Source: Escherichia phage mobillu
Reading direction: 5' to 3' (one strand)
Length of the DNA stretch: 64,000 nucleotides
Sequence record: MN850622.1
Shown: piece by piece, positions 2,747-51,805 of the stretch
How the letters are laid out: each line of letters starts with the position of its first letter
Position numbering within the stretch: position 1 is the first letter of the stretch
The notes under the pieces: model-generated
The model's input: the letters and a program-made list of their open reading frames with translations, nothing else
Databases searched by the model: none
Told to the model about the DNA's origin: nothing
Translations under genes and position numbers: made by a program

Positions 2747-3289
2747 ATGAGAAAAGCACTACTCGCTGGTCTATTTGCTCTTTCATTATCAGCACATAGC
2801 TCCGAGCATACTTTTAGTAATGTCCAACTCGATAACTTGAATTATGCTTATCAGTTTGGGGAACAGTTTTCTAAGGACGGAAAATTTAAAACGCATGAAA
2901 ATATGCATAAGAAAGGGCTTGGATACATAATGGCCGCAATACTATGGCAGGAATCATCCGCCGGTATTAATTTTAAAGATAAGAAAGGTCACCATGCGTA
3001 TGGAATGTTCCAAAATTATCTACCAACAATGAGGGCAAGAATTAACCAGCTTGGTTATAATATGACTGATGCCCAAATTAAGAAAATGCTATCTAAGCGG
3101 TCTAATTCAGCCAGATGGGCTTATATCGAATTTTCTTATTGGTTAAATATACATAACGGGGATATAAGAAAAGCTATATCCTCATATAATGCGGGATGGA
3201 AGACAAGTGCTGGAAGTAAATATGCTTCTGAAGTCCTAGAAAAGGCTAATTACCTTAAATCAAATAAACTACTGGAAATAAAAGAATGA
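2747..3289 (+). CDS. secreted lytic transglycosylase-like protein (SLT-like)
   Basis: N-terminal signal peptide; ILWQESSAG motif resembling the SLT catalytic E-S segment. Confidence 0.55.
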   Translation: MRKALLAGLFALSLSAHSSEHTFSNVQLDNLNYAYQFGEQFSKDGKFKTHENMHKKGLGYIMAAILWQESSAGINFKDKKGHHAYGMFQNYLPTMRARINQLGYNMTDAQIKKMLSKRSNSARWAYIEFSYWLNIHNGDIRKAISSYNAGWKTSAGSKYASEVLEKANYLKSNKLLEIKE

Positions 3290-3633
3290 CCAAAATGTTG
3301 GCTTTAATAGTTAGCTTGGTTTCATTTAACGCTCTTGCTAATACTACATATACTGATGTAACGGAGTATACAAACAGAACGGCGTCTGATTATTGTGGTA
3401 AAAGTCAAGAGTGTAAAGTAGATTTTTCACAAAAATTGTTATACGCGTATAAAGACGGAGAAAAAGATGGGGCGTCTAGTAGGTTCAAGGCGTCTACCTT
3501 AATTAAAAGATACTATAAAAAATGGCAAATATTAGAATGCTCGGTGGCGGAACCTAAAGATAAGGCAGCATGCAATTCTATGGTGGACCGTCTAGTTGAC
3601 TCTTATAATAGAGGACTTGCAGCAAGTGATTAA
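3286..3633 (+). CDS. hypothetical secreted protein
   Basis: ORF with signal peptide (MTKMLALIVSLVSFNALA), 4 Cys. Confidence 0.55.
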   Translation: MTKMLALIVSLVSFNALANTTYTDVTEYTNRTASDYCGKSQECKVDFSQKLLYAYKDGEKDGASSRFKASTLIKRYYKKWQILECSVAEPKDKAACNSMVDRLVDSYNRGLAASD

Positions 3634-4093
3634 AAACTATATCAAGGGCGATATTGTCGCCCTGTTTTCTAAAGGTAATAATATTGCTCATGGGTGTAAT
3701 TGTTTTCATACAATGGGCGCCGGTGTAGCAGGACAATTAGCAAAGGCTTATCCAAAAATTCTTGAAGCAGATAAACTTCAAACCGAATTCGGAGACAAGT
3801 CTAAACTCGGGACTTATTCGGTTTATGAAAAATATTTTAAGACCCATAAAGCTTATTGCTTTAATCTTTATACACAGTTTGAGCCGGGACCTAATTTTGA
3901 GTACTCTGCTTTAATGAATTGTATAATAGAATTAAATGAATTCGGAAAGAATAAGATAACAAAGCCTGTAATTTATATGCCAAGAATTGGTGCAGGTATT
4001 GGTGGTGGAAACTGGGATGTCATCGAAGAGATTTTAGATACGTATTCTACTAAACTAGAAATTGTGATTGTTGATTGGGAACCGTTATTATGA
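3596..4093 (+). CDS. macro-domain protein (ADP-ribose binding/processing family)
   Basis: GDIV...N.AHGCN...GAGVAGQ and later GIGGG segments resemble macro-domain motifs; overlaps upstream ORF by 38 nt. Confidence 0.55.
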   Translation: MTLIIEDLQQVIKNYIKGDIVALFSKGNNIAHGCNCFHTMGAGVAGQLAKAYPKILEADKLQTEFGDKSKLGTYSVYEKYFKTHKAYCFNLYTQFEPGPNFEYSALMNCIIELNEFGKNKITKPVIYMPRIGAGIGGGNWDVIEEILDTYSTKLEIVIVDWEPLL

Positions 4094-4302
4094 ATATACA
4101 TTATCCACATCCATATGACCCAAAGAATAAGGCAGTAATTATTCGTCAATGGGAACGCATTTGTCGTACCAAATGTCCAATTAATAGTCCACATGATGTA
4201 GATAAAGACTACATCGGAACATTCGTTGAATATACCTTTATTGATAAGAAAGGCCGTAAACAACATGTAGAAGAATATTGCTTAAAGGTGACATGGCTAT
4301 GA
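4075..4302 (+). CDS. hypothetical protein
   Basis: ORF 75 aa. Confidence 0.45.
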   Translation: MGTVIMNIHYPHPYDPKNKAVIIRQWERICRTKCPINSPHDVDKDYIGTFVEYTFIDKKGRKQHVEEYCLKVTWL

Positions 4303-4693: not shown

Positions 4694-5275
4694 ATGGCTA
4701 GTTTAATTTTTACCTATGCCGCTATGAACGCTGGTAAGTCTGCTTCATTACTTACTGCCGCACATAACTATAAAGAACGCGGCATGGGTGTATTAGTTCT
4801 TAAACCGGCTATTGATACTCGCGATTCAAAAGGTGAAATAGTCTCTCGTATTGGTATTCGTCAGGACGCCAATATAATTACAAAAGACATGGATATCTTT
4901 GAATTCTATAAATGGGCTGCAGCACAAAAGGATATTCACTGCGTATTTGTTGACGAAGCTCAGTTCTTAACTACTGAAAAGGTGTATCAACTTAGTCGTA
5001 TTGTTGACGTATACAATGTGCCGGTAATGGCATATGGACTACGAACAGATTTTAAAGGTAATCTATTTGAAGGTTCTCAAGCATTAATGGCTATTGCCGA
5101 TAAGCTTGTTGAACTTAAAGGTGTCTGTCATTGTGGTAAAAAGGCCACAATGGTAGCTAGAGTCACGGAAGACGGACTTCCAATTACAGATGGCAGTCAA
5201 ATTGAAATTGGTGATACCGATAGATATGTGTCATTATGCCGGAAGCATTGGAACGATTTGACAGGGTTGTTATAA
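4694..5275 (+). CDS. tk: thymidine kinase
   Basis: 193 aa; P-loop NAGKSASLL, VDEAQF, zinc ligand pattern CHCGKKAT...C; matches T4 Tk length and motifs. Confidence 0.9.
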   Translation: MASLIFTYAAMNAGKSASLLTAAHNYKERGMGVLVLKPAIDTRDSKGEIVSRIGIRQDANIITKDMDIFEFYKWAAAQKDIHCVFVDEAQFLTTEKVYQLSRIVDVYNVPVMAYGLRTDFKGNLFEGSQALMAIADKLVELKGVCHCGKKATMVARVTEDGLPITDGSQIEIGDTDRYVSLCRKHWNDLTGLL

Positions 5276-12192: not shown

Positions 12193-13152
12193 ATGGCTTT
12201 TATTACACGTAGAGAACTTATCAAAGAATTTACCTCGAACGCATATACTCCAGGACCTAATCCTATCCGTATGCCTGTAAAGACTCCTGAAGAGATTGAG
12301 GAAATCTGTTCATATTATGGGATTACTTCTCGTAAGTTTACTCAATTTGAATGCGTTACTAACACACCCGTTAAAGAGTTCATTAAAAATGGCGAGTTCA
12401 GCCGTTTATTGGCCAAACAGAAACTTCGTAATTTTTGTATTGGCGGTGAAGGACAATATTTCGCTAAGCAGTTCCGGAATAACCTTAACAATCTGATGGC
12501 CATTGCTTCTCGTATTCGTCCTCAAGCAATTAACATGAAACATTTGAAATATACTTACGATAAGTTGGAAATCATGGTTATCAGTGAGAACGAGTTCACT
12601 CTCACGTATAAACCTAAGAATGATAACGTTGCTCGTGTATTCCACCAAGCGTTGGAAGTGTTAGGTGATAATATTCACCAGATTAAAGCAATTTATTCTC
12701 GTGAGCTTAATATTATCAACCCTATCAAGAATAAGGGCCATATCGCTATCCAGGCTCGTGTATCTATTGGTAAAAAGGTTCCTGCGCCATGGTGGCACAA
12801 AGACTCCGAATATTATCAAAATCTTAAAAAGGAAAATGCATTGTTTGAAGCATCGCTTACTGGGACCCCAATTGAACAGGCCGAAGTCCTAAGTGCTTAT
12901 TCTACTTCGGGTAAATCAATGTTTAAAGGTTTGCCAAATGTGTGCAAACTGTCTGCAGTAAAACTAAATGTTTCTAATGACCTTCTTCCGGTCGAAGATT
13001 ACCATTACAATCAAATCAAGGCCACTATGGACCAACTGTCTGTTGAACTTGACAAAGCACAAGCTAAGCTTCGTGATGCTCAAAGTGTTGTAACGAATCT
13101 CCAGTTGCAGTATTCTAAACTTTTTAACGCAATGAATGCGTTAAAATCATAA
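12193..13152 (+). CDS. hypothetical protein with C-terminal coiled coil
   Basis: ORF 319 aa; C-terminal heptad-rich segment. Confidence 0.6.
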   Translation: MAFITRRELIKEFTSNAYTPGPNPIRMPVKTPEEIEEICSYYGITSRKFTQFECVTNTPVKEFIKNGEFSRLLAKQKLRNFCIGGEGQYFAKQFRNNLNNLMAIASRIRPQAINMKHLKYTYDKLEIMVISENEFTLTYKPKNDNVARVFHQALEVLGDNIHQIKAIYSRELNIINPIKNKGHIAIQARVSIGKKVPAPWWHKDSEYYQNLKKENALFEASLTGTPIEQAEVLSAYSTSGKSMFKGLPNVCKLSAVKLNVSNDLLPVEDYHYNQIKATMDQLSVELDKAQAKLRDAQSVVTNLQLQYSKLFNAMNALKS

Positions 13153-45146: not shown

Positions 45147-45798
45147 TATGATTTATTATATGCACAAAAATGCGCCATTTAAATATGGTAAATTTCCTAA
45201 TGCACAATGTTATAATATAACGCCGAATGAAAATAATAACGGATACCATCTCGGTGTAATTTTTGTAATTGTTAAAGATAACGAAATAGTTGCCTGGGCA
45301 GATTTTAAAGGTACAACATATGATGTTAATCCTGTGCCTTTCACATATTACAATATAATGGATTTGGCATATGATTATAATTGGTTTAATCATGACACGT
45401 TGGCTCATATTGAAGGTGTAGGATTTGACATCTCTTATTCTAGCTATTCATTATGTCCTATGAGCCGAGCTCACGGTAAAGATGTATCATATCTTTCAAT
45501 TCGGAAACGTGTAAACTTCAAACGTAGTACAGAGTATGTTGGTGGACTCTTTGTTAAAGATAATAAAATAACCCGTATTAGTTATCCTCTAAGTGTAGGC
45601 CAAAAAGATGTTGATGTTGATTTGGACTTAACTGAAAATAACATTAATCGTATTGCTTCTGTATATTTTGATATCGATGAAAAAATTGTAGTGTGTGGAT
45701 ACGAATTACCACCTGAAGAAAAGGCCGAAGCAATTGAAGTCGAATTAGAAATTTCTGTTGATGACCAAATATTTAATGCATTTATGAATCGAGGTTAA
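45139..45798 (+). CDS. hypothetical protein
   Basis: ORF 219 aa. Confidence 0.55.
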   Translation: MNNMIYYMHKNAPFKYGKFPNAQCYNITPNENNNGYHLGVIFVIVKDNEIVAWADFKGTTYDVNPVPFTYYNIMDLAYDYNWFNHDTLAHIEGVGFDISYSSYSLCPMSRAHGKDVSYLSIRKRVNFKRSTEYVGGLFVKDNKITRISYPLSVGQKDVDVDLDLTENNINRIASVYFDIDEKIVVCGYELPPEEKAEAIEVELEISVDDQIFNAFMNRG

Positions 45799-50556: not shown

Positions 50557-51138
50557 ATGACATGTCAATCTGAACTTCAAGAACGTGAATACCTAACAAA
50601 TCTGATTGATAGCAAATTCACCCACCAAGAACAAAACATTCTCTGGGCTTGCACCGATTCTAAGGAAGACCCGGATTTCCACTATGAATTAGACCATCTT
50701 GTTCGTAAGCATATGACTTCTACAGTACCAGTAGAACTCTACCGTGGTGTAACTCCAGAAGAAGTAGAACGTCTTTCACTTCTTTCTGTTGGTTGCCATT
50801 GGTCTCCTGGACGAGTAACATCGTTCACAACTGATTTCAGTACAGCTCGTCAATTCTCCGGGAGATGGGAATATCAGACGTACACTATTCTTAGTCTCAG
50901 GAATGCTCCATTCATTTTTGATTACTACCAAAACATGATTAACATTGTACTCGCCGGAAAGAACCCTAAGCATGTTATGGAAGAAACGCGTGTTGACGTC
51001 CTAGATATGATTGAATCTGAACAAGAGTACATGGTCTCAGGTATCTCTAGATTTGAGATTGTGGAAATTGAAGACTTAGAATATGACCCTTTATCTCGAT
51101 TATACAAAATCATTCATTTGAAAATGTTGAATTTTTAG
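50557..51138 (+). CDS. modB: ADP-ribosyltransferase (ModB-like)
   Basis: 193 aa; R-S-E triad: LYRG, TSFTT (STS-type), EQEYMV; tandem with second ART. Confidence 0.65.
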   Translation: MTCQSELQEREYLTNLIDSKFTHQEQNILWACTDSKEDPDFHYELDHLVRKHMTSTVPVELYRGVTPEEVERLSLLSVGCHWSPGRVTSFTTDFSTARQFSGRWEYQTYTILSLRNAPFIFDYYQNMINIVLAGKNPKHVMEETRVDVLDMIESEQEYMVSGISRFEIVEIEDLEYDPLSRLYKIIHLKMLNF

Positions 51139-51196
51139 TGTACAAACTCTTCCAATGATGATACTATTACCTTTATCAACCACAGGAGAAACCTAA

Positions 51197-51805
51197 ATGT
51201 TTATGCCGTATAACGAGTGTGAAATTGAAGAAATTGTTCGTCGTGCTCAAAACCCCGAATATCAAGATGTATTGCAGTACGAAATTGATAGTCAATTCAG
51301 CGACATTGAACAAAGTGTACTGTGGCAGTGTATGGAAAACAAGCCAGACTGTATTCAACAGGAGTTAAGTTCAATCGTTCGTAGAAATTGGACGTCTTCT
51401 GTTCCTGAGACAATGTATCGTGGAATCTCTAAGAAAACTATGGCCGCACTCGATGATAAAGGCATTGGTAGTATTATTAAATTTGACAGAGTAATGAGCT
51501 TCAGCCCAGTGTTCGGTGTAGCACGTAACTTTGCTTCGTATAATTTTTACGGAACATTTAATATGTTCTGCATCAAAGATGCACCATTTGCTTTCAACTT
51601 CCGTGAACATATGCTTAACATGATTCTGGCTGCGCCATCTTGTGAGTTCAATGGAGCTTTCCCTGAAGCGACAAGACGGTCTAATGCTAGACTTATATCC
51701 GACGAATGTGAATTTATGCTCCCTATAGGGACTACACTGCGTGTAGATTCTATTATTCAAGATGGACGTTATACAATCTGGAATCTGTCTATTGTCAGTT
51801 ACTGA
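51197..51805 (+). CDS. modA: ADP-ribosyltransferase (ModA-like)
   Basis: 202 aa; MYRG, MSFSP, DECEFML triad elements. Confidence 0.65.
   Translation: MFMPYNECEIEEIVRRAQNPEYQDVLQYEIDSQFSDIEQSVLWQCMENKPDCIQQELSSIVRRNWTSSVPETMYRGISKKTMAALDDKGIGSIIKFDRVMSFSPVFGVARNFASYNFYGTFNMFCIKDAPFAFNFREHMLNMILAAPSCEFNGAFPEATRRSNARLISDECEFMLPIGTTLRVDSIIQDGRYTIWNLSIVSY

Follow-up and report, generated by a model that had tools for sequence, protein, structure and literature searches.

The 64,000-nucleotide stretch of Escherichia phage mobillu that we analysed (MN850622.1; hereafter the window) encodes, on the plus strand at 3626-4093, a 155-aa stand-alone macrodomain that, judged by its sequence and gene order, is the syntenic orthologue of T4 tk.4 (adfM). 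We consider it likely that this protein, a member of the ALC1/TARG1-like class, is a glutamine-type DNA ADP-ribosyl-glycohydrolase that counters the host toxin DarT2. An earlier note on this DNA had suggested that the gene could serve in counter-defense; the suggestion was correct but not new, since an anti-DarTG2 role has already been published for the T4 orthologue. Our analysis adds that the T-even AdfM appears to be Gln-type, like SCO6735 of Streptomyces coelicolor and unlike the Lys-type DarG and the AdfM of phage PhiKZ.

The support for counter-defense comes from T4. A preprint of November 2025 identified tk.4 as the only T4 gene that was significantly depleted in HIDEN-SEQ on a host carrying DarTG2; a clean tk.4 knockout sensitized T4 to DarTG2, and the gene was named adfM, for anti-DarT factor Macrodomain (bioRxiv 10.1101/2025.11.20.689424). 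T4 tk.4 had long been annotated with an A1pp/macro motif before it received this name in 2025. The authors of the preprint inferred, without an assay, that T4 AdfM removes ADP-ribose from DNA (bioRxiv 10.1101/2025.11.20.689424), and in the ADP-ribosyl-hydrolase literature that we searched we found no enzymatic assay of any Tk.4-family protein. The mobillu and T4 proteins are 84% identical over 155 of 155 residues with no gaps; they are equal in length, start at the same position, are flanked by vs upstream and tk.3 downstream, and retain all family-invariant residues. They differ in the start codon, which is GTG in mobillu versus ATG in T4, and by 25 substitutions among the 155 residues, including Gly127, which is Lys in loop 2 of T4. 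By analogy with T4, the mobillu allele would protect its phage from DarTG2.

The longest mechanical ORF at this locus begins at TTG 3596 and reaches its stop at 4093 on the plus strand (165 aa); it contains all the motifs that the earlier note had quoted (KGDIVALF, HGCNC, MGAGVAGQ and IGAGIGGGNW). Its start, which the note had adopted, is about 30 nt too far upstream. T4 Tk.4 (155 aa) aligned without gaps to ORF residues 11-165, with the T4 ATG corresponding to GTG 3626, and a GAGGA Shine-Dalgarno sequence is present at 3611-3615 on the plus strand, 10 nt upstream of this GTG; GAGGA also precedes the start codon by 11 nt in T4, fPS-2 and IME281. On the basis of the T4 start alignment and the conserved Shine-Dalgarno sequence, we ruled out TTG 3596 and placed the gene at 3626-4093, with GTG 3626 as the most likely true start and TGA as the stop. 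A further candidate, the internal ATG 3713 (126 aa; 3713-4093), is where the NicPhage and NBG1 records begin the gene (2514-2894 and 1214-1594 in their respective coordinates). This start would cost the protein strands 1 and 2 and also the invariant residues H22 and N25, both of which persist even in homologues of 30% identity, so that the 126-aa public annotation is likely a mis-annotation. The corrected start matters because the records that truncate the protein in this way lose its catalytic His and Asn.

As the earlier note had stated, the gene lies in the interval between regB (2256-2738) and tk (4694-5275). The upstream neighbour vs, encoding the valyl-tRNA synthetase modifier (3286-3633, plus strand; stop at 3631-3633), overlaps the tk.4 start by 8 nt, and the ATG of the downstream neighbour tk.3 (DUF7202; 4090-4302, plus strand) overlaps the tk.4 stop (ATGA, 4090-4093). 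The gene order regB-vs.1-vs-tk.4-tk.3-tk.2-tk.1-tk is identical to that of T4. The window is that of a T-even phage of the Mosigvirus type; over 2.6 kb it shows 99.4% identity to Escherichia phages AV111 and NicPhage, and NicPhage is classified as a Mosigvirus (Tevenvirinae). Judging only from how the genes are ordered and from their overlapping starts and stops, Tk.4 would be made from a regB-vs-tk transcription unit. Existing records name the ORF 'macro domain protein', 'phosphatase' or 'T4-like phage protein with Macro domain, Poa1p_like family'. In the same interval, vs.1 (2747-3289, plus strand) has an N-terminus that by eye resembles a signal peptide and matches the SLT lytic transglycosylase domain below the threshold (18.8 bits; cut-off 21.3); some records label it 'SLT transglycosylase'. 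A promoter-like site (TTGTGA-18 nt-TATTAT; 4062-4091, plus strand) falls within the 3'-terminal part of tk.4, a little ahead of tk.3, and the record of Yersinia phage fPS-2 marks a 'predicted early promoter' at the matching position.

Profile searches, structure prediction and structure comparison agreed on the macro domain that the earlier note had recognized from motifs. The protein matched Pfam Macro (PF01661) with 28.2 bits against a gathering cut-off of 22 (E 1.9e-6; 116 of 118 profile positions) and PHROG 335 with an E value of 1e-66, and a profile of 54 homologues searched against the PDB retrieved Bt_1257 (E 2e-16), TARG1 (1e-15), SCO6735 (1e-13), Poa1p (1e-13) and DarG (1.5e-12). The AlphaFold2 model reached a pLDDT of 95.1 and a pTM of 0.90, and the top-ranked Foldseek matches were TARG1, Poa1p, DarG and Bt_1257. 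We observed the three-layer alpha/beta/alpha fold with a mixed six-stranded sheet, and the nearest structural relatives were TARG1, DarG, Poa1p, SCO6735/Bt_1257 and ALC1 rather than MacroD, PARG or viral Mac1, supporting the assignment, from sequence and model, of a genuine stand-alone macrodomain of the ALC1/TARG1-like class.

Within this class, sequence comparison places the protein outside the DarG family, because it scored 31.3 bits with the DarG equivalog NCBIfam NF048014 against a cut-off of 250 and covered positions 4-146 of the 338 in that model, because the PADLOC DarG model (32.8 bits) matched through the macro part alone, and because the two other hallmarks of DarG are missing: the protein ends after the macrodomain, with no C-terminal DarT-binding domain, and no darT is found beside the gene, whose neighbours are vs and tk.3. 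The DarG macrodomain (Thermus aquaticus, 5M31; M. tuberculosis, 5M3I) presumably shares its substrate with Tk.4, as T4 Tk.4 counters DarTG2. It differs in having the catalytic Lys80 where Tk.4 has Gln84 and an Asn where Tk.4 has His22.

To describe the active site, we counted conservation over 254 homologues from two large searches; all the motifs lie on the plus strand. The H22-G-C-N25-C26 motif (3689-3703) carries the conserved macrodomain Asn that follows the second strand, kept in 253 of the 254 homologues, and a His (246 of 254) that is common to TARG1, Poa1p and SCO6735; in SCO6735 the residues aligned with H22-G-C-N25 are H24-V25-C26-N27. Gly-rich loop 1, G31-A-G33-V-A35-G-Q (3716-3736), assigned to binding of the diphosphate and distal ribose, retains G33 in 253 and A35 in 251 homologues, and G31 and G33 do not vary when DarG, TARG1 and SCO6735 are aligned as well. 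In the phosphate-binding Gly-rich loop 2, I121-G-A-G-I-G-G-G128 (3986-4009), G122 and G124 are each kept in 253. The phosphate loops read by the earlier note (G31-A-G33 and G122-A-G124-I-G-G-G128) thus appear on alignment and, together with N25, are nearly invariant; 86% or more of the 254 homologues retain each of N25, G31-x-G33 and G122-x-G124-x-G-G-G128.

The segment that holds the catalytic Lys in TARG1 (K84) and DarG (K80) reads N80-L-Y82-T83-Q84 in mobillu (3863-3877), with Q84 and Y82 kept in all 254 homologues and N80 in 253. MAFFT alignments placed Bt_1257 and SCO6735 out of register around this Gln, and we therefore used HMMER profile alignments, in which NlYtQ corresponds to NMIGQ in SCO6735 and Bt_1257, to YLITK in TARG1 and to NFPTK in DarG. 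The column of TARG1 Asp125 contains Gly or Ala among the Tk.4 homologues (Gly126 here). On these alignments, the invariant Gln84 stands where DarG and TARG1 have their catalytic Lys, giving a predicted active site that is Gln-type and not DarG-type, in which Q84 and N25 would be the key residues for function. The loop after Gln84 reads FEPGPNFEY; it has no Lys and is not the extended, Lys-bearing mobile loop.

A Gln at the catalytic-Lys position is shared with SCO6735 (PDB 5E3B) and with Bacteroides Bt_1257 (PDB 2AFC/2FG1), as are the Asn of the H-x-C-N motif and the Gly/Ala at the TARG1 Asp125 position; ALC1 falls in the same Gln-type subclass. In vitro, SCO6735 undoes the ADP-ribosylation of thymidine by DarT, and it also rescues cells; its Q85A and Q85E variants are inactive and N27S is nearly inactive; and in the proposed mechanism the distal ribose is held at its ring oxygen by the Gln, and a water bound to the backbone protonates thymine (PMC9411070). 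Thymidine de-ADP-ribosylation has moreover been described as a unifying activity of the ALC1/TARG1-like class (PMC9411070). Given the same Gln/Asn pair and the absence of the catalytic Lys, we propose that Tk.4 follows the mechanism of SCO6735 and not that of DarG. The likeness has limits: Tk.4 is only about 22-29% identical to SCO6735 and Bt_1257, both of which have 5-6 extra residues after the Gln, leaving a shorter loop in Tk.4, and the Lys residues of the SCO6735 loop, proposed for DNA binding or as a DNA clamp, are missing. Furthermore, Val25 of SCO6735, which works through its backbone in the proposed mechanism, is Gly23 here, and SCO6735 is cellular and DNA-damage-induced, whereas Tk.4 is viral and infection-induced. 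By sequence, the absence of the Lys-bearing loop and the exchange of Val25 for Gly23 make the fit to SCO6735 imperfect.

In the model that we favor, DarT2 would place ADP-ribose on thymidine N3 in TNTC motifs of single-stranded phage DNA, and Tk.4, acting as a DNA ADP-ribosyl-glycohydrolase, would strip the thymidine-linked ADP-ribose, allowing phage replication and transcription to proceed in hosts that carry DarTG2. Gln84, held by Asn25, would replace the catalytic Lys and, as in SCO6735, position the distal ribose, with a backbone-held water proposed to start the cleavage. Hydrolysis of thymidine-linked ADP-ribose on DNA by the mobillu protein itself is what we infer from the analogy with these relatives.

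Two further proteins place this model in context. Human TARG1 (C6orf130), a top Foldseek match of the same class, also reverses thymidine-linked DNA ADP-ribosylation (PMC9411070, PMC13036486), but it uses a Lys84/Asp125 dyad, where the Tk.4 protein has Gln84 and Gly126. The second is PhiKZ gp104, which an independent paper (Cell Rep 2026, PMC13309987) also named AdfM, and which removes ADP-ribose from DarT2-modified DNA and is imported into the phage nucleus (PMC13309987). Like Tk.4, it is a stand-alone phage macrodomain countering DarT2; unlike Tk.4, it is Lys-type, with the DarG-like motifs FPTKDNW and PPLGCANGGLDF, and it shows 21% identity to Tk.4, BLASTP finding just a 23-residue match (E 6e-4). 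From these Lys-type motifs and this low identity, the PhiKZ and T-even AdfM proteins are separate lineages at the sequence level, the PhiKZ protein apparently having been acquired independently, and the one name AdfM covers two lineages with probably different chemistry. In the PhiKZ stretch that we compared, gp104 is located at 12518-13006.

The family is widespread. Using tblastn, we found matches in 2800 of 50,697 phage records, mostly of Straboviridae but including several other large virulent phage groups, and a library of 1.84 billion proteins yielded 5363 representative clusters at E <= 1e-3. Phages carry stand-alone ADP-ribose erasers that undo the modification of DNA by DarT toxins, and the present family is found in about 5% of the phage genomes sequenced. 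One match, P0133 (1314 aa, 23 matched stretches), was rejected as a macrodomain array, because its 56-residue tandem repeat resembles GAGVAGQLAK..ILEADKLQT by chance. DarTG2 restricts T5 (PMC11825919; bioRxiv 10.1101/2025.11.20.689424), and we found no Tk.4-family ORF among the 473 six-frame ORFs of T5, the best of which scored 7 bits (E 0.12) with filters off, compared with 224 bits for the window ORF as the reference of this search. The restriction of T5 and the absence of the family from it are consistent with an anti-DarTG2 role, to which this single phage lends weak support.

We considered whether the protein might serve a broader or different counter-defense, by erasing uracil-linked ADP-ribose on RNA, by degrading ADP-ribose-derived immune signals, or by neutralizing DarT2 mainly through binding. 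On RNA, SCO6735, TARG1 and DarG can also undo the ADP-ribosylation of uracil (PMC13036486), and the spread of the family in phages is arguably wider than a single defense system would explain. Moreover, SCO6735 that has lost its catalytic activity continues to inhibit DarT in vitro by binding it (PMC9411070), so that protection by Tk.4 could be partly non-enzymatic. Against these readings, the effect of tk.4 in the T4 screen was specific to DarTG2 among the conditions tried (bioRxiv 10.1101/2025.11.20.689424), the strictness with which Gln84, Asn25 and the two Gly loops are conserved argues for catalysis and not for binding alone, and the literature that we searched contained no bacterial defense that ADP-ribosylates uracil. 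We therefore regard a function of this broader kind as unlikely.

A related reading takes the Tk.4 family as a distinct, short-loop, Gln-type branch of TARG1-like proteins, and not as an orphan DarG, with substrates beyond DarT2 lesions; these would be, for example, uracil-linked ADP-ribose on RNA or base-linked adducts of undescribed defense toxins. It joins to this a hairpin in the gene, which would act as an attenuator or RNA 3'-end element and set the amount of Tk.4 made. A terminator scan detected this GC-rich hairpin, AGGGCGAT-ATT-GTCGCCCT followed by a T-run, at 3645-3673 on the plus strand, in codons 7-16 of tk.4, with an energy of -13 kcal/mol; the NBG1 and fPS-2 records annotate it as 'terminator'. 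It is kept in T4, fPS-2 (Tequatrovirus), IME281 (Dhakavirus) and one Krischvirus, where a Val-to-Ile change turns a G.T pair into A-T, and it is absent in Karamvirus and Jiaodavirus. The codons that form it are rare (GGC, GTC and GCC make up 19%, 10% and 12% of their synonymous sets, respectively), and when synonymous codons were resampled the native energy was reached in 4.2% of samples (p ~0.04), which is suggestive but falls short of proof. Taken jointly, with all its parts, this reading has in our estimate only a small chance of being right.

The record names raise another alternative, namely that the protein is an ADP-ribose-1''-phosphate phosphatase like yeast Poa1p and disposes of a compound left over from RNA repair or tRNA splicing. 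The annotation of T4 tk.4 reads 'phosphatase; contains A1pp phosphatase motif', PHROG 335 bears the name 'phosphatase', Poa1p is of the same class and a top Foldseek match, and His22 aligns with Poa1p His23, which is mutated in deposited structures. Poa1p, however, has Ser at the position of the invariant Gln84 and Cys at that of Asn80, and sensitivity to DarTG2 is the only known phenotype of the T4 orthologue. ADP-ribose-1''-phosphate is, furthermore, the ADP-ribose by-product of the KptA-2H RNA-repair route; to our knowledge, T4-type RNA repair, which relies on Pnk and RNA ligase, does not use that route, and we are aware of nothing that would lead a T4-type phage to produce this compound. 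A Poa1p-like role is thus highly unlikely, and the DNA ADP-ribosyl-glycohydrolase remains our preferred reading.

The earlier note had also pointed to two ADP-ribosyltransferases in the window and offered a regulatory hydrolase as the other possible role of the gene. The two enzymes hold up, as ORFs 50557-51138 and 51197-51805 are ModA/ModB-like and match PHROG 832, 'RNA polymerase ADP-ribosylase', and a Pfam search of these ORFs gave no match. The enzymes Alt, ModA and ModB modify arginine. That Tk.4 should be a regulatory eraser, removing the ADP-ribose or NAD-capped-RNA adducts of the phage's own Alt, ModA and ModB from host proteins such as RNA polymerase, is scarcely credible. In its favor, the window does contain the ModA/ModB-like genes (50557-51805), ADP-ribosylated proteins are among the substrates of SCO6735 and TARG1 (PMC9411070), and an arginine-specific macrodomain, MavL of Legionella, is reported to exist. 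Against it, the substrates described for ALC1/TARG1-like proteins in the literature that we searched are acidic-residue, thymine or uracil, and phosphate linkages and not arginine (PMC9411070, PMC13036486), which makes the chemical fit poor; tk.4 and the ModA/ModB-like genes are unlinked and 46 kb apart; and the family also occurs in many other phage groups, for example in Felixounavirus-, Vequintavirus- and Pakpunavirus-sized genomes.

Elsewhere in the window, at 45148-45798 on the plus strand, we observed a homologue of T4 gp61.2 (AdfA, the anti-DarT1 factor) with 66% identity. It has Arg at the position of T4 His165 (RB69 residue 164), as in wild-type RB69, and the RB69 AdfA allele does not neutralize DarT1 (PMC11825919). 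Because of this RB69-like Arg, mobillu may be sensitive to DarTG1 unless its adfN (gene 30.3, which lies outside the window) is intact.
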